A program made the translations under genes and the position numbers. From a virus (Duplodnaviria > Heunggongvirae > Uroviricota > Caudoviricetes), in the IMG/VR virus record IMGVR_UViG_3300033069_001366, positions 111,108 through 122,180 of that record: DNA of 11,073 nt; one strand, written 5' to 3'. The notes beneath the pieces were generated by a model. The model made no database searches. It was not told the DNA's origin and worked only from the letters and a program-made list of their open reading frames with translations. This document shows, in pieces, positions 1 to 10,156 of this stretch. Numbering within the stretch: position 1 is the first letter of the stretch; every line of letters begins with the position of its first letter.

Positions 1-205
1 ATGTAAGTTTTATAATATTACCATTAAGAACTGAGCCATGTTTTGCAGCTTCTTGTTCTATAGTTTTACAAGGGTATGGATCTACAGCAATCTTAAATTT
101 ACAAGATACCTCATCAAAAGAATAACCTTTATAGTAACCTATCTCAAGATAAGACTTATACTTATTTTGTTTAATTAGATTATTTATTATATCCCATCTT
201 TGCAT
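1..205 (-). CDS. Class I SAM-dependent methyltransferase (Methyltransf_24-like), N-terminal part, runs off the window
   Basis: Not in the ORF track. Manual translation from ATG at 205 gives MQRWDIINNLIKQNKYKSYLEIGYYKGYSFDEVSCKFKIAVDPYP..., open to the window edge. YLEIG motif I and a VDP motif are present; the start overlaps the end of the upstream gene. Confidence 0.8.
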   Translation of the reverse strand, partial: MQRWDIINNLIKQNKYKSYLEIGYYKGYSFDEVSCKFKIAVDPYPCKTIEQEAAKHGSVLNGNIIKLT

Positions 206-375
206 TTATCCACTATTTTAAAGTCTTTAAAGTATTTTTCCAGAACATCAGCAACATTATGTTTTTGAGTATAAGTCTCGGAAGTTGCTATGACTTCCCC
301 ATTATCACCAACTAAATTAAATCTAAATTCACCTTTTCTCTTACCATGAGAAACTTTTTTAATTACTGCTACCAT
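187..375 (-). CDS. YegP/DUF1508-like small protein (single domain)
   Basis: GEFRFNLVGDNGEVIATSETY resembles the DUF1508 signature (FRFxLxAxNGExIAxSExY). Confidence 0.75.
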   Translation of the reverse strand: MVAVIKKVSHGKRKGEFRFNLVGDNGEVIATSETYTQKHNVADVLEKYFKDFKIVDKCKDGI

Positions 376-667
376 TGTAAAAAATTATTAAAATTGAAAT
401 AATAAGGTTTGATATAAGTGATATTAAAAATAAACCCCATGTTTGATTAATATCAACTTTTCCATCTGTTCCATCTAATCCTTTGATTTCATATTTAAAA
501 TCAGAGAATTTTGTAATTAATCCTGCACCAATTACTGAAAAAAGAATACACAATAATATTATCCAAGACCCAGTCTGTTTCTCTAAAAAGAATAATAGAG
601 GTGCTCCGAATCCAATAAATAACCCTAAAATCTTTTTTATACTTTGTTTATTTATAAATTTAGCCAT
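359..667 (-). CDS. Hypothetical membrane protein, about 3 TM segments (holin candidate)
   Basis: 102 aa with three hydrophobic stretches and a basic N-terminus; overlaps both neighbours. Confidence 0.65.
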   Translation of the reverse strand: MAKFINKQSIKKILGLFIGFGAPLLFFLEKQTGSWIILLCILFSVIGAGLITKFSDFKYEIKGLDGTDGKVDINQTWGLFLISLISNLIISILIIFYNGSSN

Positions 668-846
668 ATTTCTATAAGTATTGCTGGTATAACTGTTATA
701 ATAAAATCTTTATAATCAGGTTTACCATGTTTTAAATAATCAAATCCTTCTTTTAATCCAGCTATTAAAAATACTAGATATAAACTATTGAAAAGCAAAT
801 ATATAACAATTCCTACAAAAAAGTGTAAAATTTTATCTAGTTTCAT
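652..846 (-). CDS. Small membrane protein with DKxLHF motif (VanZ-like phage family)
   Basis: MKLDKILHFF...LKEGFDY...GKPDYKDFIIT pattern. The start at 846 is preferred over 867 because it lies 1 nt after the upstream stop (848-850). Confidence 0.6.
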   Translation of the reverse strand: MKLDKILHFFVGIVIYLLFNSLYLVFLIAGLKEGFDYLKHGKPDYKDFIITVIPAILIEIWLNL

Positions 847-847
847 T

Positions 848-1558
848 TTATAATGATTTTCCTGCAACTAACCCTAGTGCAACTAGTACTGCATACAAAG
901 GTAGTTTATTTTGTTTAGGTGGTTTATAAATTACAGAATTCAAACCTGTTGTTTTTACATAAGGGTTTGTATGAAACATCTGAATCTCATATATAGGTTT
1001 CTTAAATAGTCCTTTTTTGACTTTTGCAACTCTAATATATTGAGAATCAGGGAATTGAATATTATTTATTCGAAAAGAATCTTTTTCTACTGTTCCTTGG
1101 AATACAAAGTATGCAGAAGAATCCTTTACAGTTTTGGGAACTTGAATAGCACTATCCCTATAGAACTTAATGACTTCTGCACATCTTTGCTCAACAGAGT
1201 CTGTAAACCTTTTCATGGCTTTTTTATCAAGATAAGGGACAGCCACATCTCTAATCCCTGTATTCGAAGTAGTTGAATAAAAAGCAATTAACTCTTTTAT
1301 TCTTCTATTATGTTTATCTTTTAGTCTAAAAATAGAATCTGAAAGATTTGCAATGTCATCTTTATTATTTGTTATAATTGCTTCCTGAGTAAGAATTGTC
1401 TCTCCATATTTATTTTTTATAGAGTCTATTTTCTGATTTTCAAGTTGTTGTTTTGACATTGATAATTGATAATAGTCAGAACTACACTTATTTAAACCCA
1501 GTAAAAATATAATTGCTAAAATCATTAATACTCTATCTATTGTTAAATACTTTTTCAT
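848..1558 (-). CDS. Envelope protein with N-terminal TM/Cys and C-terminal TM (DUF6549-like, possible spanin)
   Basis: MKK plus a hydrophobic stretch ending GLNKC, then a coiled-coil-like segment, a beta-rich part with HTNPY, and a hydrophobic C-terminus LPLYAVLVALGLVAGKSL. Confidence 0.6.
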   Translation of the reverse strand: MKKYLTIDRVLMILAIIFLLGLNKCSSDYYQLSMSKQQLENQKIDSIKNKYGETILTQEAIITNNKDDIANLSDSIFRLKDKHNRRIKELIAFYSTTSNTGIRDVAVPYLDKKAMKRFTDSVEQRCAEVIKFYRDSAIQVPKTVKDSSAYFVFQGTVEKDSFRINNIQFPDSQYIRVAKVKKGLFKKPIYEIQMFHTNPYVKTTGLNSVIYKPPKQNKLPLYAVLVALGLVAGKSL

Positions 1559-2090
1559 TTAATATCTTTTTACATTTTTTACAAAAGAAATACTCCCTAT
1601 CATACATTTTTAATTGATTAAAGTATCCTCCACCTTCCATAAAACAACCTTTCGTTTTACAGTGGTTATAAATACCATAACTATGACCTAACTCATGCAT
1701 AGCTAATTTTGATAATCTTCTTACATTTCCAACATTATATATTGTTATAATAGATCTATTTTCTACTGTCAATCCATCCAACATTTCATCAGTACAATGG
1801 TGAGATAAACTCCTATAAGTTATACCTAATGTTCTTATATTAGTATCCAGATAATCAAGATACATATTAGCATCATAACCAAAAATATTCCCACACCAAG
1901 GCTCTTTTACAAATCTTATACTTACAGTAGAAACTGTATCTGGAAGATGTCTTCTGCACATTCTCTGCAAATCATACATTATTGCATATCTATGAAGAGG
2001 AGGTACATCAGAAAAGAAAACACATTTAATCTGACTATAACCTATTAAAAATGAACTACTTAGTAATAAGCTTAGAAATAGCTTTTTCAT
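1533..2090 (-). CDS. Secreted zinc metalloprotease, archaemetzincin-like (peptidase M54)
   Basis: HELGHSYGIYNHC-KTKG-CFM...FCKKC matches the metzincin HExxHxxGxxH motif plus the archaemetzincin Cys cluster, with one extra residue before the third His. Signal peptide MKKLFLSLLLSSSFLIGYSQ. Alternative start at 2096. Confidence 0.8.
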   Translation of the reverse strand: MKKLFLSLLLSSSFLIGYSQIKCVFFSDVPPLHRYAIMYDLQRMCRRHLPDTVSTVSIRFVKEPWCGNIFGYDANMYLDYLDTNIRTLGITYRSLSHHCTDEMLDGLTVENRSIITIYNVGNVRRLSKLAMHELGHSYGIYNHCKTKGCFMEGGGYFNQLKMYDREYFFCKKCKKILNEKVFNNR

Positions 2091-2259
2091 CACCATCTGT
2101 TTTATTTATTAAATCTTCAAGAGTTTTAATGGATGAACTCTTTAATACTAAAGGAGAATTATAATTACTAAAAAGTAAATTATAATTGTCCCTCTTTACT
2201 GCACACCATTTATTAGTGTAGCAGTTTTTATGAAAAATCCAGTCATGTATATTATTCAT
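2056..2259 (-). CDS. Hypothetical phage protein
   Basis: 67 aa ORF in the operon, overlapping both neighbours. Confidence 0.7.
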   Translation of the reverse strand: MNNIHDWIFHKNCYTNKWCAVKRDNYNLLFSNYNSPLVLKSSSIKTLEDLINKTDGDEKAISKLITK

Positions 2260-2677
2260 TATTAATATTTAAAAGTTTACAAATATATCTAAATTCATTT
2301 ATTGATTTACATTGTCCAGAAAACAAATGCGTTAAGGGAATTCCCTCTCTAAATACTTCTAACCATCTCGCTTCATAAAATAAAGCCCTTGTTCCTAGTA
2401 TTATATTATTCTTTTTAGCATAAAATCTAAGACCATATTGAAATTCCCCAAATTCCCATCCTTCAGCTTCTATTTGTTCTTTGGTTAGATATGGAGTTCT
2501 AAATATTTTTGAGTAATCTGTTATAGGATCGTGATACATTAAAAGATCTCTAAATCCTTCAGAATTTATAGTAATTTTTTTCCATTCAGGATTGCTTATA
2601 ATATTACTCTGCATCGCCTCACATTCATATCCAACTCTTATATCTTCTATATTTGGTGTATAATATTGTTGACTCAT
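2252..2677 (-). CDS. Hypothetical phage protein
   Basis: 141 aa ORF with YYTPxIE..VGYE and LTKEQIEAEGW patterns reminiscent of Bacteroidota phage ORFans. Confidence 0.8.
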   Translation of the reverse strand: MSQQYYTPNIEDIRVGYECEAMQSNIISNPEWKKITINSEGFRDLLMYHDPITDYSKIFRTPYLTKEQIEAEGWEFGEFQYGLRFYAKKNNIILGTRALFYEARWLEVFREGIPLTHLFSGQCKSINEFRYICKLLNINNE

Positions 2678-2898
2678 TTACTTGATAATGCTGATGTTAA
2701 TGAATAAGTATTTGTAATATAAGGAACTTCTGTTGAAGTAGGCATACCTGCATATCCACCTGTTGTATTTCCAACTCCAATTATATTAGTAAGTCCCTTA
2801 TCATAAGTCCAGTCACTAGGACTCCTTTTTCGGAACATATCATTCCCAAATCCTCTACTATTATTTGTAGAGGTTCCTACTGATTTGGGAGGATTTAA
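2674..2898 (-). CDS. -1 frame extension (74 aa, S/T/G/N-rich) of the 2895..3104 protein; alternatively a 54 aa ORF from ATG 2838
   Basis: The frame is open from 2922 to TGA at 2676-2674, which overlaps the next ATG (ATGA). It fills the only gap in the operon. Confidence 0.65.
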   Translation of the reverse strand, partial: LNPPKSVGTSTNNSRGFGNDMFRKRSPSDWTYDKGLTNIIGVGNTTGGYAGMPTSTEVPYITNTYSLTSALSSK

Positions 2899-2904
2899 AA
2901 ATTT
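2832..2904 (-). other. Programmed -1 ribosomal frameshift signal
   Basis: Slippery heptamer A AAT TTT (2904-2898) directly before TAA, a 7-nt spacer, then a 15-bp stem (2890-2882/2852-2844 and 2872-2867/2858-2853) with a 9-nt bulge that can pair with GTTCC (2836-2832). Confidence 0.7.
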
Positions 2905-3104
2905 CTGATTAAGATTTGTACGTTATCAGGATCTGATGCATACTTTTCATCAATCTCCCTTGTTGCTCTAAACACTACTTCTTTTTCAGTAGCTGCAAGA
3001 ACAAACTTAGGTTCTTGTACTAATACTGAATCTTTGTAAACTTTACCTTTTTCTCCTTCTTCAAACTGATGGTAAATAACAGTGTACTGAAATAAACTTT
3101 TCAT
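2895..3104 (-). CDS. Hypothetical small phage protein (0-frame product)
   Basis: 69 aa ORF ending ILIRNF-stop on the slippery site. Confidence 0.85.
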   Translation of the reverse strand: MKSLFQYTVIYHQFEEGEKGKVYKDSVLVQEPKFVLAATEKEVVFRATREIDEKYASDPDNVQILIRNF

Positions 3105-3115
3105 GGTTTTTATTT

Positions 3116-3778
3116 TTATTTGTTATAAACAAAGTCTAGAATCTTTCCTACAAGATCTGACCTATGATTCTCTTTAAGATTTATTCTTTTTATATCTTTA
3201 ATATTTTTAGAAAGCTCTATTGCAAATTGCAGACCATTTTGAGATTCATGTTTTAAATTTATATCCTGTTGGTCATTATCACCATTTATTATCATCTTTC
3301 CTGTCTTTCCAAGTCTCGTCAGAATAGAAAGCATTTGGAACCTTGTTAAGTTTTGAGCTTCTTCAACTATTAGAACATCATCAATTGTTTTACCTCTTAT
3401 GAAATTAATAGGACCAGCGATGATTCTTTCTGCAGTAATCAAGTCTTGAACTTTTACCTTATCTATACACTTCTCCAGATTTTCTCTGAAGGCTTCCATA
3501 TAAGGCGCAAATTTCTCATTCTTAGAACCAGGAAGAAATCCCATAGAATCATCCTCCAGTTCAATCATTGCTCTGGTTACCAGCACTTTATCACACATCT
3601 TCTTATTAAGAAAATCCAGTGCAGTCTGAGCACCAACAAGAGACTTTCCAGAACCTGCCCTACCTGTAATTATAACTATTTGATTTTCAACAATTAATCT
3701 TTTAGCTTCTTTCTGTTCATCATTTAAAGTAACATTGTACTTTATTTCATTCTTTCTTTCCCTATTTGGATCTTTCAT
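3116..3778 (-). CDS. phoH: PhoH family ATPase
   Basis: LNDEQK, Walker A GRAGSGKS, FIRGKT, IVEEAQN, LTRLGKTGKMIINGD, NHRSDLV motifs. Confidence 0.95.
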   Translation of the reverse strand: MKDPNRERKNEIKYNVTLNDEQKEAKRLIVENQIVIITGRAGSGKSLVGAQTALDFLNKKMCDKVLVTRAMIELEDDSMGFLPGSKNEKFAPYMEAFRENLEKCIDKVKVQDLITAERIIAGPINFIRGKTIDDVLIVEEAQNLTRFQMLSILTRLGKTGKMIINGDNDQQDINLKHESQNGLQFAIELSKNIKDIKRINLKENHRSDLVGKILDFVYNK

Positions 3779-4194
3779 AATAAGTCTTTTAATCTTTGTA
3801 ATACATCTTGAGAAGTATGTCCATCAAAAGGATATTTAGCTTTCTCTGTTTCAGGAATTTTAAAAAGGTCCCAATCTTCTGCTTTATAGTGGTTTGTAAT
3901 CTGTCCTGTAGGTAACATAGCTACAACGACAAACCACCCACCTCCAAAACACAATTCTCCATCATTATGTTTCCAAGATTTGTGAACATCATATTTACTT
4001 GTACTAGAATATTCCCCGTCCCTACCTATCTCTGTAGATCCTTGAGTAGACCATTCATTAAATAATGCAGCATTGTATAACTTTCTAAATTCGTAGAGTT
4101 CTTTAAAGGAGTGATAACCATCAGAGGTTAGTTCTTTTTCCTGAGGAGTTAAGAGAGAAACTGCTAATTGAGTCCCTTGTAAATTAGTTACCAT
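3775..4194 (-). CDS. Conserved phage protein, WDGH-type domain
   Basis: SDGYHSFKELY...KSWKH.DGE...GWF...LPTGQITNHY...WDLF...FDGHT pattern. The stop overlaps the phoH ATG. Confidence 0.75.
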   Translation of the reverse strand: MVTNLQGTQLAVSLLTPQEKELTSDGYHSFKELYEFRKLYNAALFNEWSTQGSTEIGRDGEYSSTSKYDVHKSWKHNDGELCFGGGWFVVVAMLPTGQITNHYKAEDWDLFKIPETEKAKYPFDGHTSQDVLQRLKDLL

Positions 4195-4462: not shown

Positions 4463-4672
4463 ATGATAAAAGCCGAAAGGCAGGAAACAAGAATTGACGA
4501 GGATGGTTTCGTTACCAACCTACCAAAAACATGTATATGCAGGGCGATTATAACATGTACATGGTATCAGGCAATAAAGCTTGATGGTAGGTGGATTGAG
4601 ACAAACAATAAAATCTCCTTAGCTAAGGCTAGGAGATTGCATTCCAGATTATTAAAGATTTGGAACCCTTAG
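4463..4672 (+). CDS. Hypothetical protein
   Basis: 69 aa ORF after an A-rich leader; first gene of the plus block. Confidence 0.6.
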   Translation: MIKAERQETRIDEDGFVTNLPKTCICRAIITCTWYQAIKLDGRWIETNNKISLAKARRLHSRLLKIWNP

Positions 4673-4678
4673 TCTTAA

Positions 4679-4703
4679 GACCTGAGTATGTCATTAAACT
4701 GCT
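4679..4703 (+). ncRNA. Possible compact H-type pseudoknot
   Basis: GAC(4679-81)/GTC(4690-92) stem; loop AGTA(4685-88) can pair with TGCT(4700-03) across an A-rich linker. Helices are short. Confidence 0.35.
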
Positions 4704-4759
4704 TCCTGTCCAGCACTGTGTGGTGCTGCTGATGATGACTCAAAAGAGTCGAAACAGGG
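4704..4759 (+). ncRNA. Type III hammerhead ribozyme
   Basis: GUC cleavage triplet (4708-10), stem I CAGCAC/GTGCTG, core CTGATGA (4729-35) plus an extra T, stem II GACTC-AAAA-GAGTC, GAAA (4751-54), stem III TCCTGT/ACAGGG. Confidence 0.92.
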
Positions 4760-4848
4760 TTCATTCCACTATAATAAGGATATTAATTTATAAACAAACT
4801 CAGTTTAGAGGTAGGAAACCTGAGTCTAATTAAAACCTCACAAGTATT

Positions 4849-5163
4849 ATGAGTATAAATTATTTTAATGTGTCAAACTTGAACTTAATTAAGTTTATAG
4901 AAGAACACAAAGACGCAACTATCAGGAGCTGTAGCTCACACTCAAACCCTGCGTATTACGCAGAGTATGAGAATAAAATTGTATTTCATTGGGGTAATGA
5001 CCCAAGATACACAATCTTGGGTTTGACCCAAGAAAATATAATTAAATTTCGGATGTTGTCATCCGAACTGCCAAGTAATTATTGGCAATTAACTGATATT
5101 CTTAAGGATATCAGAGAAGGAGTCTTCGTCTCAATAGAGGAGTCTATTGAAGAAGCATTGTAA
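4849..5163 (+). CDS. Hypothetical protein
   Basis: 104 aa ORF in the operon. Confidence 0.8.
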   Translation: MSINYFNVSNLNLIKFIEEHKDATIRSCSSHSNPAYYAEYENKIVFHWGNDPRYTILGLTQENIIKFRMLSSELPSNYWQLTDILKDIREGVFVSIEESIEEAL

Positions 5164-5165
5164 CA

Positions 5166-5213
5166 AATAAAGTCCAACTAGGTTGGCTGCATGTTCAAGT
5201 CATGCCTTTATTT
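5166..5213 (+). ncRNA. tRNA-like acceptor/T-arm element 1
   Basis: AATAAAG/CTTTATT stem, inner hairpin CCAAC-TAG-GTTGG, T-arm GCATG-TTCAAGT-CATGC, followed by T-CTA. Confidence 0.7.
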
Positions 5214-5251
5214 CTAAAGTAGAGACACTACTATAAAAACTGTATAAAGTT

Positions 5252-5473
5252 ATGGAAAGCATGACAAACTGGTCAGAAGACCAAATCAACCAAAGGTTGA
5301 AAGAGATTGACCAAGCTGAAATGGAAGCAGGTCGTCCTAAACCTCAATTCTTATGTAGAGATGACGATGATGGTGATGACTATCAGGAGAATCTTGAATT
5401 GGGATGGTATTTAGACGAATTACGTGATGAGCGTAAATTCCTTATTGATTTAAGGAATAAACTTCATCAATAG
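5252..5473 (+). CDS. Hypothetical acidic protein
   Basis: 73 aa ORF with a D/E-rich centre. Confidence 0.75.
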   Translation: MESMTNWSEDQINQRLKEIDQAEMEAGRPKPQFLCRDDDDGDDYQENLELGWYLDELRDERKFLIDLRNKLHQ

Positions 5474-5517
5474 CCAAGGTAGGAGTGTAGGTTGGGGTTC
5501 GATTCCCCAGCTTGGCT
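5473..5517 (+). ncRNA. tRNA-like acceptor/T-arm element 2
   Basis: GCCAAG/CTTGGC stem (extendable by A5472-T5517), 13-14 nt linker with two GG, T-arm TGGGG-TTCGATT-CCCCA, followed by T-CTA. Confidence 0.7.
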
Positions 5518-5556
5518 CTAAACTTCTGGGAGGAGTTATAAAACCCTATATATAAA

Positions 5557-5724
5557 ATGAAAACAGAAAAGATGATCAAGGTGACAATGTCTTGGCAGGA
5601 GTATTATAACTGCTGGAGACCATTTGTAGATCAAAAGTTGAGAGACTGGGATCTTCAAGCAACTAGTAAAGAAGTAGTAATCTTGTGCAGTGAGAAGCTG
5701 TATAAGGAATTTGAAAACCAATAA
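5557..5724 (+). CDS. Hypothetical protein (55 aa, not in ORF track)
   Basis: MKTEKMIKVTMSWQEYYNCWRPFVDQKLRDWDLQATSKEVVILCSEKLYKEFENQ; AAAATG start context; fills an operon gap. Confidence 0.7.
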   Translation: MKTEKMIKVTMSWQEYYNCWRPFVDQKLRDWDLQATSKEVVILCSEKLYKEFENQ

Positions 5725-5733
5725 ATTGTAAAA

Positions 5734-5967
5734 ATGAAGTACAAAGCCATGATGGAACTCATCGCCATCGAAAAAACAGATGATAAGGCAATCTATGAGG
5801 TTATAGGACCTAATGATCCTATAGACTTATTTGGATTCAAAGATCCAATGAGTGTATCGTACATCTACTGCAAATGCATGGATGACGGCTTTAGGACTAT
5901 TGGGTCTTACAAAAGACATAAGGATGCTAATATTACTAGTGTTCTGATTATCAACCATTTAAACTAA
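5734..5967 (+). CDS. Hypothetical protein
   Basis: 77 aa ORF with AAAATG start. Confidence 0.75.
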   Translation: MKYKAMMELIAIEKTDDKAIYEVIGPNDPIDLFGFKDPMSVSYIYCKCMDDGFRTIGSYKRHKDANITSVLIINHLN

Positions 5968-5972
5968 AAAAC

Positions 5973-6194
5973 ATGAAAACAAAAGACTGGTTATTATTCT
6001 CCTATTTTGCATTTAATCTGGTATTATTTGCAGGAGTAGGTTTTGGGAATTTATTTCTCAAGAATGGGGAGAATCCATTTTTTCCTGGAATTAATACAGA
6101 TGCAATGGCAACATTGTTTATGTTCCTAATTGCAGGAATATGTGGACTGGCAATGTATATTACAATCACTTTAAACAAAACCACAAAACCATGA
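5973..6194 (+). CDS. Hypothetical two-TM membrane protein
   Basis: 73 aa with two hydrophobic segments. Confidence 0.75.
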   Translation: MKTKDWLLFSYFAFNLVLFAGVGFGNLFLKNGENPFFPGINTDAMATLFMFLIAGICGLAMYITITLNKTTKP

Positions 6195-6508
6195 AAAGAG
6201 TAAGAACAAACTGCATCGAAGCGATAGTAGATGCAAGGGGAAAGGTAGTTAACTATCGCATGACATTTCCTGTCCCAAGGGATTATGCTAATGAAATTCA
6301 TGAACGCTTCTCATGTGTTCAATCAAGGCTCAACTTTATAAGAGGTAGAGCTTATATTGAACTGTCTGACAAGGACTTCGAAGCATTATGGGCATACAAA
6401 TGCAGAATCCAGATGATTGTTGCTGATACTAAAATCAGAATACTTAGTATAAAAAGGGACAATGCCATGATGGAATACACACATTATCTCAAAACAATAC
6501 ACCAATAA
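6191..6508 (+). CDS. Hypothetical protein
   Basis: The start at 6191 (MKRVRTN) is preferred because of ATGA overlap with the upstream stop; 105 aa. Confidence 0.75.
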   Translation: MKRVRTNCIEAIVDARGKVVNYRMTFPVPRDYANEIHERFSCVQSRLNFIRGRAYIELSDKDFEALWAYKCRIQMIVADTKIRILSIKRDNAMMEYTHYLKTIHQ

Positions 6509-6553
6509 ACCAGCCTAAGGAGCTTAGTGAGGGTTCGAATCCCTCGCTGGTTC
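6508..6553 (+). ncRNA. tRNA-like acceptor/T-arm element 3
   Basis: AACCAGC/GCTGGTT stem, inner hairpin CTAAG-GAG-CTTAG, T-arm GAGGG-TTCGAAT-CCCTC. Confidence 0.72.
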
Positions 6554-6564
6554 AATAAGTTTCC

Positions 6565-6587
6565 ACTAAACAACAGCCTAGGAACTG
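6565..6587 (+). repeat. 23-nt intergenic repeat, copy 1
   Basis: ACTAAACAACAGCCTAGGAACTG, 22/23 identical to 7896-7918, ending 17 nt before ATG 6605. Confidence 0.85.
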
Positions 6588-6604
6588 GGAAACTTAGAGT
6601 TCAT

Positions 6605-7792
6605 ATGAAAAAGTATCTGAAAATCGTGAACAATGGTCTCATGCACAATGAAGATCTTACTCTTGTTGGTTCTTCTACTAAGAGAGGAGCATCTGACAAG
6701 ATTGGACAGTATGGTTCAGGGAATAAGTTTGCTCTGGCTTATTACCTAAGGAATGACATTCTTCCTATTATTTACAGTGGTAAAAGGAGGATAGACATTG
6801 ACTGCGAAATTGTTCTCCACCGTGATTCACCTATTCGTGTTCTTACTGTTGATGGACAAAAGACATCCATTACTGCAGGAATGGGTGAGTTGGATTGGAA
6901 AGCATGGATGGCATTGAGGGAAACTGTCTCCAATGCTATTGATGAAGGAGGGTTTGAAATGACCACATGCTTCTATAATGATGAGAATCAATTGGAGTAT
7001 TGTGATGATAAAACCACAATTTACATTCCTTTGTCAAAAGAAATCTCTGACATCGTGATTAACTGGGATCATTACTTTGCATTTGACAGGAAGCATGACT
7101 ATGCAAATGAAGTGGGAAGAATATTCTTCAAGAATGAACCTTCTCCTTATAATGTATACAGAAAGGGGATACGCTGCTATGACAGTGATGTAAAGAGATT
7201 ATTTGATATTGACTTTAACAATATTGAAATAAATGAGTCAAGGGTTACCAGCAGCGCCTACATTAGCAACTATTTCAGAAAATTCATGGCAAAAATAGAT
7301 GATGAGGGTATATTCATAAGAGTAATTAAGAGTGTACCTATTGACTTTTTCTGTGCTAATATTCCCAATATAGGATATGCAGCGTTTAAAAATGCTGTAA
7401 GTGAAGGTATAGAGTTTGTACCTGCATTTGCCAAAGAATTGATTGGATCATTATTTATTGGAAAGTCGATTGTTATACCTGATGAATGGTATGATGATTT
7501 AAAGTCAAGAGGTATAATCGTAGGTAAAGAGGAATTGAGTAAAACAGGAAATTTTGTCTTTACAAGGCTTGACAATATGAATATAGCTAAGATAAAGTAT
7601 TACCTCAAGTCAGTGAACTGTAAATTGGATGTGAGAACAGGTAAAATCTTGAAAGGTTCATATATAGAAGTACACAATGGAATTGCATACGTTGATGAGG
7701 ATAATGCAAAGTTTTACACCGAGAAAGAAATTGCCAGAGATATTGTGTATAATATGAATAAAGTTGATCTTCTGGAACTGTTTCTTGACTAA
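6605..7792 (+). CDS. GHKL (HATPase_c-like) ATPase-domain protein
   Basis: NNG, GSSTK...IGQYGSGNK and LRETVSNAIDEGG motifs. The start at 6605 is preferred over 6527, which would run through the RNA element. Confidence 0.8.
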   Translation: MKKYLKIVNNGLMHNEDLTLVGSSTKRGASDKIGQYGSGNKFALAYYLRNDILPIIYSGKRRIDIDCEIVLHRDSPIRVLTVDGQKTSITAGMGELDWKAWMALRETVSNAIDEGGFEMTTCFYNDENQLEYCDDKTTIYIPLSKEISDIVINWDHYFAFDRKHDYANEVGRIFFKNEPSPYNVYRKGIRCYDSDVKRLFDIDFNNIEINESRVTSSAYISNYFRKFMAKIDDEGIFIRVIKSVPIDFFCANIPNIGYAAFKNAVSEGIEFVPAFAKELIGSLFIGKSIVIPDEWYDDLKSRGIIVGKEELSKTGNFVFTRLDNMNIAKIKYYLKSVNCKLDVRTGKILKGSYIEVHNGIAYVDEDNAKFYTEKEIARDIVYNMNKVDLLELFLD

Positions 7793-7856
7793 TAATATGT
7801 TGGCTAGACCAATACTTGTGGTGATGTAGGTGAAAATCCTGAACCATAACATATTA
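7793..7856 (+). ncRNA. Three-way RNA element with T-loop variant (element 4)
   Basis: TAATATGTT/AACATATTA outer stem starting right after the stop; arm GTGGT/ACCAT plus AGG-TGAAAAT-CCT. Confidence 0.5.
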
Positions 7857-7895
7857 CCAATATCCACCAAATGTTCTATGGAAAACAATGGTCCA

Positions 7896-7918
7896 ACTAA
7901 AAAACAGCCTAGGAACTG
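7896..7918 (+). repeat. 23-nt intergenic repeat, copy 2
   Basis: ACTAAAAAACAGCCTAGGAACTG, ending 17 nt before ATG 7936. Confidence 0.85.
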
Positions 7919-7935
7919 TGGACTCATGAATTATT

Positions 7936-8367
7936 ATGAAAGCTCTTAAGAATCTCAAAGAGATGCCAAATGCTGAGTTTGTATTCAAAACTGTCATTAA
8001 GGACCCAGTATCCATTAATGAAAAGGGTGATGAAACTCAGAACTACAGGTTCATTCTTGAAACTGAACTTGAAGTGAGGGGTATTTCTCCTATCTACAAT
8101 CCTGATGACAGGATGGCTACTCCTAAGTATGATCAAGTCTTTACTACAGAGATAAGGGTTAATGGAGACCTGTTGGAGAGTATTCCAGAGAGTGAGTTTG
8201 ATCTTACCAATGAGGATGATATTCGTGATGGTGGTACTTACAAAGGTAAGTGCTACTTGGATATCTCAGCTTCAGGTGAGGTATGGCTCACCAAGACAAG
8301 GCTCAGTGACTATGCAAAGACCTCAAGGATGGACAGGGGAAGAGAAAGGTGGAGGAGGATTAACTAG
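7936..8367 (+). CDS. Hypothetical protein, apparent paralog of 8488..9006
   Basis: 143 aa; shares VRG, GxYxG..LD..A...EVW and an Arg-rich tail with the next gene. Confidence 0.85.
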   Translation: MKALKNLKEMPNAEFVFKTVIKDPVSINEKGDETQNYRFILETELEVRGISPIYNPDDRMATPKYDQVFTTEIRVNGDLLESIPESEFDLTNEDDIRDGGTYKGKCYLDISASGEVWLTKTRLSDYAKTSRMDRGRERWRRIN

Positions 8368-8380
8368 TCCTGTAGTTAAT

Positions 8381-8418
8381 AGGGAGGCACACAATATGTG
8401 TGCTTCCTTATTTTTTTT
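8381..8418 (+). terminator. Rho-independent terminator
   Basis: AGGGAGGCACACA-ATA-TGTGTGCTTCCTT stem followed by T8. Confidence 0.85.
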
Positions 8419-8487
8419 ATGCCTTCACAAACCAACTGTGTATAGTGTCGAGTTATTTAATTATTTAACGATTTAAAACTTTAGCGT

Positions 8488-9006
8488 ATGCGTAAAAGTA
8501 TCTTAGCTGCCATCAGTAAATTTGATAAGATGGAGCTTACATGGGATTCCTTTGTGAAAGTCCCCGACAGTGAGGGTGATGGTGCCACACTCATCCTGAA
8601 ACTCAGTGATCCTATTCCTTATGTAAGGGGTTCACAGGATGTGGAATTGGATGGAAAAATGATTCCTGTTGACCAACATGATGTGCAGGAAGTTAAAATC
8701 CATACATCTACGATTAAGTCCCTGGAAGATAAGTACAATGAAAAGTACGATGCTTTAGTGGCTGCTGGAAAAGAGCAAGAGGCAGAGAAACTTGAGCCTG
8801 AAATGTACTTCGATGAAGACAAAACAGGTGGTTACTCTGGTGAAAACCTCATTTTGGATGTGGCTGCAAGGACAAGGGAAGTATGGTTTAAACTTCCAAA
8901 TGATTCCTTCAAGAATGCATCCACGTCTTATCGCAACCAACGCAGGTTGGAACAAAGGCGTACCGTGTATGGTGGTGCCATTTCTTCCAGGAAGGTTACT
9001 GGATAA
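8488..9006 (+). CDS. Hypothetical protein, apparent paralog of 7936..8367
   Basis: 172 aa with an acidic body and basic C-terminus. Confidence 0.85.
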   Translation: MRKSILAAISKFDKMELTWDSFVKVPDSEGDGATLILKLSDPIPYVRGSQDVELDGKMIPVDQHDVQEVKIHTSTIKSLEDKYNEKYDALVAAGKEQEAEKLEPEMYFDEDKTGGYSGENLILDVAARTREVWFKLPNDSFKNASTSYRNQRRLEQRRTVYGGAISSRKVTG

Positions 9007-9012
9007 GTAAAA

Positions 9013-9028
9013 ACAGTTCCTAGGCTGT
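9013..9028 (-). repeat. Inverted copy of the repeat core
   Basis: ACAGTTCCTAGGCTGT is the exact reverse complement of 7904-7919 (ACAGCCTAGGAACTGT). Confidence 0.8.
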
Positions 9029-9030
9029 AA

Positions 9031-9068
9031 GGGGAGAGAGTTGTAATGACTCTCTTCCTCTTTTTATT
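9031..9068 (+). terminator. Rho-independent terminator
   Basis: GGGGAGAGAGTT-GTAAT-GACTCTCTTCCT stem followed by C-TTTTTATT. Confidence 0.8.
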
Positions 9069-9089
9069 AAACCCTCTAAATCTTATAAC

Positions 9090-9269
9090 ATGCTGGCAAT
9101 CAAAGGATTAATCCCTGTCTTTGATGGGGAGGTAAAGAAAGAAGTATTTGTAGAGAACTCCTTCAAAAAGGGAGATCGAAACTACATACGGTTCAAGGAT
9201 GAGCACAATGTATCCAAAGTTGCTATATTCTCTAAGAGTAAACAACAATGGAAAGTTGTGGCTTATTAA
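9090..9269 (+). CDS. Hypothetical protein (59 aa, not in ORF track)
   Basis: MLAIKGLIPVFDGEVKKEVFVENSFKKGDRNYIRFKDEHNVSKVAIFSKSKQQWKVVAY. Confidence 0.65.
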   Translation: MLAIKGLIPVFDGEVKKEVFVENSFKKGDRNYIRFKDEHNVSKVAIFSKSKQQWKVVAY

Positions 9270-9362
9270 TTTCTTCCCCTGTAAAATCTACAGGGAAATT
9301 GGTCTCATACAACCTTCAAAAAATAATCAAAAGAAAGGAGTTTTCTTTGCTGATAATTATTT

Positions 9363-9434
9363 GGCCTTGTAGTTCAAGGGATAGAACGGGAGTTTTCTAA
9401 ACTCTTAATATAGGTTCGAGTCCTATCGGGGCTA
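9363..9434 (+). tRNA. tRNA-Arg (anticodon UCU)
   Basis: Full cloverleaf: GGCCTTG/CGGGGCT acceptor, GTTC/GAAC D-stem, GGAGT-TTTCTAA-ACTCT anticodon arm, ATAGG-TTCGAGT-CCTAT T-arm. CCA not encoded (A-CTA). Confidence 0.9.
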
Positions 9435-9468
9435 CTACCCCATTTTTAGGGGTTATATGTGAAAAAAC

Positions 9469-9499
9469 AGGGATGTGTTTCTACACTGTCCCTCTTTTT
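9469..9499 (+). terminator. Rho-independent terminator after the tRNA
   Basis: AGGGATGTGT-TTCT-ACAC(T)GTCCCT stem followed by CTTTTT. Confidence 0.7.
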
Positions 9500-9551
9500 A
9501 AAACTTCGTCTATAGGTAACCTGTTAGGTATGTATACGAAGTAAAAAAACG

Positions 9552-9570: not shown

Positions 9571-9640
9571 CAACTAATTGAATTTGGACTCTTAGGAAAA
9601 TCAAATTGGATAGGATAAAAACCGTTAGTATCCTATTTTA

Positions 9641-9820: not shown

Positions 9821-10156
9821 ATGTACATTGCTATTGTGGTCTTTATATTTCTTCTCTGCGAGTTAGTTACAACTATTCAGTTTAATCTTTGGTATCCTAT
9901 TAGAGCTTCTGGTTTAGAACTTCTAGAAAAAGAACTCGAAAATGTTGCTCCTGGAGAAAAAGGTTCCCCTATCTATCTATATAAAAGAACTGTCTTAGAA
10001 GCTAGCGTACTTGAAGAGACATACTCTTTAGTCTTTCCATATGCTGTACTTTCTTCAGATGGTTTGACTTATAGTATCTTGAGATATTCCAAGGCATATT
10101 ATATAGTTAGACAGAAATTCTATTCCCCAAAACCTAAAAGAGTCAAATTCAAATGA
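9821..10156 (+). CDS. Hypothetical protein with N-terminal TM/signal anchor
   Basis: 111 aa, hydrophobic N-terminus, stop overlaps the next ATG. Confidence 0.75.
   Translation: MYIAIVVFIFLLCELVTTIQFNLWYPIRASGLELLEKELENVAPGEKGSPIYLYKRTVLEASVLEETYSLVFPYAVLSSDGLTYSILRYSKAYYIVRQKFYSPKPKRVKFK

Follow-up and report, generated by a model that had tools for sequence, protein, structure and literature searches.

Structured elements at the gene borders of a phage accessory operon: a type III hammerhead ribozyme and mini-tRNAs as candidate signals for dividing its transcript

Many of the gaps between the small genes of one phage operon hold a discrete structured element. What are these elements, and what could they do for the phage? 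The stretch of DNA analysed here, referred to as the window, comprises the last 11 kb (11,073 nt) of a 122,180-bp phage contig in IMG/VR (IMGVR_UViG_3300033069_001366; GC content 30.8%). Within it, positions 4463–9499 form a plus-strand block of small genes that lies between a packed minus-strand arm (2–4194), whose genes overlap or leave gaps of only a few bases, and a second packed arm starting at 9821. An earlier interpretation made from the letters alone (the sequence-only reading) had proposed that the early RNA of the block may be segmented and stabilised by a self-cleaving ribozyme and substrates of tRNA-processing enzymes, or may release small decoy RNAs, and had noted that the flanking arms are tightly packed and free of such elements. 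The list of open reading frames (ORFs) and our genome-wide descriptor scans agree with the latter statement.

The elements at the centre of this work are a hammerhead ribozyme and three truncated transfer RNA (tRNA) folds, subsequently referred to as mini-tRNAs. The view that they are dedicated RNA signals which divide a polycistronic transcript is partly supported, namely by their conservation, their fixed position and their use of equivalent slots. On balance, and with modest conviction, we lean towards reading the block as a cassette-built operon of small accessory genes whose long polycistronic RNA would be punctuated by the ribozyme, by mini-tRNAs as candidate substrates of RNase P and RNase Z, by a tRNA and by terminators.

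The hammerhead and the mini-tRNAs of the window

The element in front of the 104-aa gene is a complete type III hammerhead, predicted to cleave itself after C4710 of a GUC triplet. Stem I (7 bp, 4711–4717/4722–4728, loop GUGU) and stem II (5 bp, 4737–4741/4746–4750, loop AAAA) are closed by their loops, and stem III (6 bp, 4704–4709/4754–4759) is the open helix, which is the type III arrangement. The core is made up of CUGAUGA (4729–4735) and GAAA (4751–4754), with U4709 paired to A4754 and C4710 as H17. All positions of the type III core are present (C3 U4 G5 A6 N7 G8 A9...G12 A13 A14, the pair A15.1-U16.1 and an H17 other than G). An extra U (4736) is inserted between A9 and G10.1. PMC3705267 describes an additional nucleotide at this place as tolerated in hammerheads and present in that of chrysanthemum chlorotic mottle viroid (CChMVd), where a U sped cleavage 3–4-fold (citing De la Pena & Flores 2001). 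A descriptor of the fold matched once in the 122-kb genome and not at all in 20 shuffles. The sequence-only reading had combined the hammerhead with a pseudoknot at 4679–4703, and this second half of the claim was not confirmed: by eye, only alternative pairings of 4–5 bp were seen there, and in 14 related hammerheads nothing shared by the flanking sequences pairs with the ribozyme.

For a search of IMG/VR, we used a pattern in which the letters of the core, the extra U and GUC were set and the stems left free, in order to avoid circularity. This pattern matched 126 places, of which 74 form all three stems, compared with 3 of 2520 interior-shuffled controls. In an alignment of 14 hammerheads of the same length, 99% of the cells pair, and both sides have changed in 13 of 17 pairs. 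Loop 1 (UGUGU-R) and loop 2 (AAAA) are constant across these members, as expected if the loops of the hammerhead touch. Many of the phage contigs with this hammerhead carry two or three copies between small genes. The ribozyme belongs to a widespread phage subclass that has an extra U after A9 and is not scored by Rfam; intergenic phage hammerheads as such are already known.

T-arm elements had been suggested at 5166, 5473, 6508 and 7793. The first three turned out to be short folds of an acceptor and a T arm (mini-tRNAs A, B and C in Table 1), and the fourth, treated with the other features below, is not of this kind. The three share a 7-bp acceptor, a connector of 14–16 nt and a canonical T arm with the pair G53-C61. 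A 7-bp acceptor on a 5-bp T stem with a UUCRANN loop and G53-C61, the architecture of the t-elements discussed below, was found in all of them and in those of related phages. With 12–19 nt between acceptor and T arm in the twelve elements of the clade, they are not canonical tRNAs; lacking an anticodon arm and a variable loop, they cannot decode. In the family of mini-tRNA A, the connector consists of U8 and a hairpin of 4 bp, the 5-nt loop of which has GG at its end, in effect a miniature D arm, and in the other families it carries GGAG.

The position of the mini-tRNAs relative to the genes is narrowly defined. They start between 2 nt inside and 2 nt after a stop codon and end 39–52 nt before the next start. 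Mini-tRNA A begins 2 nt past the stop of the 104-aa ORF, and both A and B end 39 nt before the next ATG. None of the three is followed by a U-run. A genome-wide descriptor (T loop TTCRANN, 5-bp T stem, 7-bp acceptor) returned only three short elements from the 122-kb genome, at 5166, 5472 and 6508, besides real tRNAs and a few AT-rich chance matches. ARAGORN and the Rfam tRNA model called none of the mini-tRNAs. A covariance model (CM) seeded with relatives and two of the window elements found the third, unseeded element at 5472 (E=0.003) and nothing else in the genome.

Related and unrelated phages

A megablast of the window against a phage collection gave no match, and a search of IMG/VR for related loci with the 395-aa protein of the block found none. 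Relatives were reached through a protein search with the 395-aa protein, which has many homologues in metagenomes, followed by look-ups of the contigs. Identity to this protein is 96% in L001, 88% in L004, 76% in L005, 74% in L002, 54% in L003 and about 40% in L006–L008. The gene order from the 77-aa through the 172-aa gene is conserved in relatives; the left end has different small genes. When one left-arm protein (848–1558, minus strand) was used in a tblastn search for a cultured close relative, only a distant match was obtained.

The sequence-only reading had proposed a survey of relatives for the same elements at gene boundaries. There the structures are indeed conserved, with compensatory changes, and they occur in unrelated phages as well. 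Mini-tRNAs are found at the same gene borders in L002 (at 68, 475, 1791 and 3083), L004 (1183 and 2236) and L005 (61 and 1141), and one of weaker quality in L003 (1322). Orthologues of mini-tRNA A (L002 475, L004 1183, L005 61) show compensatory changes, and in the orthologue of mini-tRNA C (L002 1791–1837) acceptor and T stem have changed with pairing kept. Across 12 mini-tRNAs from 5 related contigs, in an alignment fitted to the model, 99% of the cells pair and both sides have changed in 10 of 12 pairs, A1-U72 and G53-C61 being invariant. That such elements recur at orthologous borders does not depend on this alignment. Elements of the clade start at −8 to +4 nt from the last base of the stop codon, and the leaders that follow them measure 30–63 nt up to the next start.

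Outside the clade, a scan of IMG/VR with one T-arm sequence mostly hit real tRNAs, and an IMG/VR pattern of the core of mini-tRNA C had no match. By descriptor and model, mini-tRNAs were found in unrelated contigs of 34–50% GC: three to four in L068, four in L057, one in L062 and two in L179, with CM E-values of 1e-6 to 1e-2. Five shuffles of the searched 1.55 Mb gave 0 descriptor matches. L057 and L068 hold arrays of 3–4 elements within about 600 nt. In unrelated phages, the start lies 8–10 nt after the stop codon. L179, which had been fetched because of its hammerhead, has on one strand a hammerhead, two ORFs, a mini-tRNA 8 nt past the stop, one ORF and another mini-tRNA 10 nt past the stop; it repeats the architecture of the window in unrelated sequence. 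Altogether, the mini-tRNA architecture of 45–50 nt recurs at least 20 times.

Different elements can occupy the same slot. A homologue of the 104-aa gene (58% identity) is preceded by a mini-tRNA in L002, where the window and L001 have the hammerhead. The gap before the 395-aa gene, which we call HATPase-like for reasons given below, is occupied by a mini-tRNA in the close clade; L007 has a real tRNA there, and L003 a perfect hairpin of 23 bp. In the gap after it, L002 has a canonical mini-tRNA and the window the 7793 element. The hairpin of L003 (2424–2480) resembles an RNase III substrate. The tRNA of L007 (9886–9971, 86 nt), just before the HATPase-like gene, was called Val(GAC) and has an oversized middle part; about 110 nt past the same gene, a fold with a 6-bp acceptor weakly resembles a mini-tRNA (11307–11358).

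The elements also coincide with points at which related genomes diverge. Between L004 and the window, an identity of about 90% extends to 4786, 27 nt beyond the hammerhead. From there L004 continues with a different ORF; the gene after its hammerhead belongs to another, unrelated cassette. It rejoins the window at mini-tRNA A (5160–5218) and then jumps straight to 5520, and thus lacks exactly one unit of leader, 73-aa ORF and mini-tRNA B. L005 has mini-tRNA A and its leader as in the window, followed by another ORF. The module after the 395-aa gene in L002 (mini-tRNA and hairpin) is the one that precedes this gene in the window. Since the breakpoints of the cassettes fall at the RNA elements, the RNA modules are conserved joints between shuffled ORF cassettes.

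A similar relation between tRNAs and stop codons exists in the cultured Bacteroides phage crAss001 (MH675552). Here, annotated tRNAs start 3–4 nt behind Gp6 and Gp7, and for Gp5 and Gp8 their start lies 9–14 nt before the gene is over, so that tRNA maturation by RNase P must cut these mRNAs at the stop codon. The mini-tRNAs copy this geometry, the difference being that the crAss001 tRNAs are full and decoding. The CM matched crAss001 only once, across the end of an HNH gene beside a tRNA, and this match may be a tRNA fragment. This phage also encodes a TROVE (Ro60-like) protein, Gp96, with about 900 nt of unannotated sequence past its 3' end (1966–2870) that could hold a Y-RNA-like gene.

Paired hairpins, terminators and genes of the block

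Table 1. Features of the block, with positions in the window
Feature	Position	Strand	Description and support
Terminator-free transcription unit, nine small genes	4463–8412	+	ORF list, homologues in L001–L005
Type III hammerhead	4704–4759	+	full core, three stems; identical in L001 and L004
Mini-tRNA A	5166–5212	+	7-bp acceptor, U8, 4-bp D-like hairpin with GG loop, T arm GCATG/TTCAAGT/CATGC
Mini-tRNA B	5472–5517	+	acceptor begins inside stop TAG 5471–5473; T arm TGGGG/TTCGATT/CCCCA
Mini-tRNA C	6508–6552	+	acceptor begins at last base of stop TAA 6506–6508; T arm GAGGG/TTCGAAT/CCCTC
5' hairpin 1, untranslated region of 395-aa gene	6556–6596	+	loop CCUAGGAA 6577–6584
Conserved element after 395-aa gene	7793–7862	+	47-nt core 7801–7847 identical in L005
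5' hairpin 2, untranslated region of 143-aa gene	7888–7927	+	loop CCUAGGAA 7908–7915
Intrinsic terminator	8378–8420	+	16-bp stem, U8 run, z=−6.0
3' hairpin with inverted repeat	9013–9028	+	loop UUCCUAGG 9017–9024, directly upstream of 9031 terminator
Intrinsic terminator after 172-aa gene	9031–9066	+	folding and terminator scan
7-bp hairpin	9277–9295	+	7 nt past stop of 59-aa ORF, no U-run after; z=−3.6
tRNA-Arg(TCT)	9363–9435	+	no encoded CCA; 61.6 bits
Terminator-like hairpin between A-run and U-run, closes block	9463–9499	+	z=−3.5 for 9436–9500

Repeats of 23 nt had been noted at 6565, 7896 and, inverted, at 9013. They hold as repeats, with a 15-nt sequence, ACAGCCTAGGAACTG, that has only three copies in the genome (6573 and 7904 on the plus strand, 9014 on the minus strand), and not as processing sites. 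The direct copies are part of hairpins in the 5' untranslated regions (5'UTRs) of the 395-aa and 143-aa genes, and 17 nt separate the end of each copy from the ATG. In hairpin 6556–6596, a covarying outer stem and an A-rich bulge are followed by an inner CAG/CUG stem and an 8-nt loop. The outer stems covary between phages (AAGTTTCC/GGAAACTT, AAGTTCTC/GAGAACTT, GTATCCA/TGGATAC), and the inner stem (CAG/CUG, or AAGG/CCUU in L002) presents the loop C(C/G)UAGGAA. The loop of the 3' hairpin is complementary to both 5'UTR loops. In L002, all three copies carry a matching change (CGUAGGAA twice, UUCCUACG once), and the complementarity is therefore kept. We read the repeats as a likely RNA-RNA contact of the terminator-proximal 3' hairpin with two 5'UTRs, which probably controls the 395-aa and 143-aa genes at the level of translation or stability. 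They could alternatively be a DNA site for a protein, an explanation that leaves the covarying stems unaccounted for. In either case, these hairpins are a system separate from the processing sites.

The three terminators listed by the sequence-only reading (8381, 9031 and 9469) are borne out by folding. A GC-rich hairpin with a direct U-run was found at 8378–8420 and 9031–9066, both also detected by the terminator scan, in which 8378 is the first terminator-like site of the block on the plus strand. The one at 9463–9499 was seen by folding only and is not listed in this simple scan. The predicted tRNA-Arg and the hairpin given as 9274–9297 were likewise found, the latter as 9277–9295 and covered only by a 98%-identical relative. 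Between the tRNA and the last terminator, starting 2 nt past the former, there is a further 5-bp hairpin, ACCCC-AUUUUUA-GGGGU (9437–9453). The contig has 21 tRNA genes, one in the block and 20 in a minus-strand cluster. Two additional sequences in this main cluster, at contig positions 86670–86745 (−) and 85923–85995 (−) and thus outside the window, have the shape of a tRNA, including a 7-bp acceptor and a T loop with TTCGA, and were not called by ARAGORN. For the 7793 element, we obtained no CM or Rfam match, no significant fold (z=−0.76) and, with a pattern of its core, no match in IMG/VR. On the whole window, only the tRNA passed the Rfam thresholds, with no ribozyme or other family, and separate Rfam searches of 4640–4850 and 7780–7940 gave no family.

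The genes of the terminator-free unit encode, in order, proteins of 69, 104, 73, 55, 77, 73, 105, 395 and 143 aa, and the ORFs of the block are almost all ORFans. Searches of Pfam, PHROGs and the PDB gave no function for them, except for the 395-aa protein (ORF 6605–7792), which matches phrog_8203 and has some distant phage homologues annotated as 'HATPase'; it has no sequence relative in the PDB. The 55-aa ORF (5557–5724) has a sub-threshold Pfam match to APOBEC_C (22.7 bits with a cut-off of 23.6, E=1e-4). Inside the 104-aa ORF, we noticed a strong hairpin and a repeat (4968–5051; CCCAAGAT...ATCTTGGG, then TTGACCCAAGA), which gave a chance match to a microRNA family and minus-strand terminator-like calls.

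Some leader sequences are shared as well. After mini-tRNAs A and B (5218–5251 and 5518–5556), CTAAA is followed by a small hairpin and by (U)AUAAAA(A)C about 10–15 nt before the ATG. There are two types of leader behind mini-tRNAs, and type 'a' (AACTTCTGGGAGGAGTT...) also occurs 3' of those in L002 and L004. Another leader, AAATGGGGGACAGC-N5/6-ATCTGAACA...ATG, stands directly 5' of start codons at L002:118–158, L003:800–839 and L003:2488–2527; it is absent from the block of the window and could serve as a promoter or as a leader for translation. Downstream of the block, amid diverged non-coding DNA, GACTCTTAGGAAAA is common to the window (9587–9598) and L002 (4557–4568).

What the elements may do

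If the elements act as RNA signals, one long polycistronic transcript would cover the block, with dedicated modules for the formation of RNA ends in its intercistronic gaps. The hammerhead would cut itself after C4710, and the body of the ribozyme would stay on the downstream mRNA as a structured leader with a 5'-OH. The mini-tRNAs retain the features used by RNase P, RNase Z and CCA-adding enzyme (a 12-bp stack of acceptor and T arm, the T loop, the GG connector), and the host RNase P and RNase Z may excise them like a tRNA. This would leave an upstream mRNA ending at, or 1–2 nt inside, its stop codon and a downstream mRNA starting about 40 nt before its ATG. The tRNA-Arg and the intrinsic terminators would finish the units. 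Pairing of the 8-nt 5'UTR loops with the hairpin preceding the 9031 terminator would add a second, separate layer, and the same conserved modules may serve as joints for the exchange of cassettes between related phages. What the analysis shows is the structures with their conservation and covariation, where they sit, which slots they share and where the cassettes break; cleavage itself, the acting enzymes and the timing are inferred. In the 122-kb contig, which is 66% complete, we found no CCA-adding enzyme, RtcB or RNase Z-like protein.

Several observations weigh against this proposal. The hammerhead was not called by the Rfam RF00008 clan (best match HH9, 11.6 bits, E=5), and six hammerheads in L179, L086 and L141 are likewise below the Rfam 15 gathering score; the extra U is a possible cause of the low score. 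Since the elements were found with descriptors requiring pairing, the pair counts favour structure, and those of the mini-tRNAs lean further towards it because the alignment was fitted to the model. The mini-tRNAs inspected by eye have an A-U pair at position 1 and a pyrimidine discriminator. Both are unusual for tRNAs, and recognition by RNase P and RNase Z is therefore not guaranteed. A cut at the 5' end of mini-tRNAs B and C and of L002 1791 removes all or part of the upstream stop and should give non-stop mRNAs: with a cut at position 1, the 104-aa message keeps its stop, and the 73-aa and 105-aa messages lose all or part of theirs. Finally, the 7793 element fits none of the known classes.

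The stop codons bear on an explanation that we consider unlikely, in which the excised mini-tRNAs are the actual product. As abundant mimics of the tRNA elbow, they would soak up a host tRNA-binding factor, the cutting of the mRNA being a by-product; candidate targets are SmpB and transfer-messenger RNA (tmRNA), a tRNA-targeting defence nuclease or a modification enzyme. The non-stop mRNAs left by excision of stop-overlapping elements would be substrates of tmRNA-SmpB, and the arrays of L057 and L068 would suit a decoy. The mini-tRNAs also resemble the tRNA-like domain (TLD) of tmRNA, with an acceptor, a T arm, a reduced D region and no anticodon arm. A phage-encoded precedent comes from mycobacteriophage DS6A, which has a 'TLD-only' gene; strong inhibition of tmRNA is described for a similar molecule (PMC4131195). 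However, the G3-U70 alanine identity pair of the TLD is present in 0 of 8 mini-tRNAs inspected (3:70 is U-A, C-G and C-G in the window and C-G, A-U, C-G, C-G and C-G in L002 and L003), and unlike the TLD, the mini-tRNAs come in many copies per operon, with differing acceptors and at stop codons. Acceptor and connector vary freely between copies, which fits a signal read by its shape better than a specific ligand. Moreover, the same slot takes a hammerhead or a long hairpin, neither of which can be a decoy.

It seems improbable that the elements act mainly as DNA, as joints for homologous recombination that shuffles the ORF cassettes. The promoter/stem-loop cassettes of T4-type phages are a comparable case. 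The loss of homology in L004 past the hammerhead, its return at mini-tRNA A with one unit skipped, and the transposed module of L002 are what such joints would produce. However, a recombination joint needs sequence identity and not pairing, and yet the stems have changed on both sides with pairing kept; nor would it conserve the hammerhead core and the T loop across unrelated phages. A role as DNA joints is in any case compatible with RNA punctuation and does not exclude it.

A function as pause, termination or anti-termination signals for unusual RNA polymerases of the phage itself is very improbable: it would agree with the location at gene ends, but the mini-tRNAs are not followed by a U-run, ordinary intrinsic terminators already exist in the block, and the same kinds of elements occur in unrelated phage contigs of 34–50% GC. 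Least credible, and already disfavoured, is the notion that the mini-tRNAs are decaying tRNA genes or tRNA fragments from mobile elements with no present function, for although the genome has 21 tRNA genes, the one crAss001 match overlaps the end of an HNH gene, and prokaryotic tRNA gene fragments are described as common (PMC9897764), both acceptor strands are present in every mini-tRNA, the same architecture is found at least 20 times, compensatory changes keep the pairing in relatives whose HATPase-like proteins are 54–96% identical, and the position relative to stop and start codons is fixed.

Punctuation of a transcript by processing signals thus remains our preferred reading, and it has precedents. 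Closest are the mitochondrial tRNA-punctuation model and the t-elements of plant mitochondria, at which RNase P and RNase Z cut, sometimes upstream of a stop codon, and which have a conserved T arm, GGTTCRANYCC (Forner et al. 2007, PMC1920247). Like the mini-tRNAs, they are tRNA-like folds beside ORFs, and they are the sites at which RNase P and RNase Z make mRNA ends; an excised t-element is a stable small RNA with C/CA added (PMC1920247). Unlike the mini-tRNAs, they are organellar, few per genome, about 74 nt long and non-canonical cloverleaves, with cleavage described for them and predicted for the mini-tRNAs. The mini-tRNAs belong to bacterial phages, measure 44–50 nt, lack an anticodon arm, occur several times per operon and are interchangeable with a ribozyme.

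For hammerheads, it has been reported that tandem sense-strand copies between small genes cut polycistronic phage or prophage RNAs of about 2 kb in vitro (Perreault et al. 2011, PMC3088659), and a 5' end mapped in a halovirus is no more than three nucleotides away from the hammerhead cleavage site (PMC3088659). Many of our phage contigs also have tandem copies between small genes. The window copy differs from those hammerheads in that it belongs to type III, carries a U inserted after A9 and has short closed loops, and it would share its job with mini-tRNAs. In the early genes of T7, RNase III sites in the intercistronic gaps give discrete mRNAs with stable ends. The elements described here are likewise structured RNA signals in phage intercistronic gaps, and L003 even has its perfect hairpin in such a slot, but the signals of the window are a ribozyme and tRNA mimics, on which RNase P and RNase Z would act instead of RNase III. 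In the literature and in Rfam, we found tRNA-shaped cut signals for organelles, and no paper or family for mini-tRNA punctuation in phages.

A wider version of the proposal is quite unlikely as a whole. It would have tRNA-punctuated accessory operons in several phage lineages, with mini-tRNAs, ribozymes, real tRNAs and long hairpins as interchangeable cut signals that move together with the cassettes; as many mini-tRNAs overlap the stop codon, cutting would leave stop-less messages, and the released mini-tRNAs might blunt rescue and tagging by tmRNA-SmpB of the host.

If the cuts are real, phages would share with organelles a tRNA-shaped punctuation, in a stripped-down form of 45 nt that annotation tools have missed. 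This would explain many seemingly "empty" intergenic gaps in phage genomes and provide a function for phage hammerheads. ORFan cassettes would then move with their own RNA-processing signals, and the RNase P and RNase Z of the host would have a part in the expression of phage genes. The hairpins with complementary loops in the 5'UTRs and at the 3' side, for their part, would be a small example, open to testing, of RNA control acting at long range or in trans inside a single phage operon.

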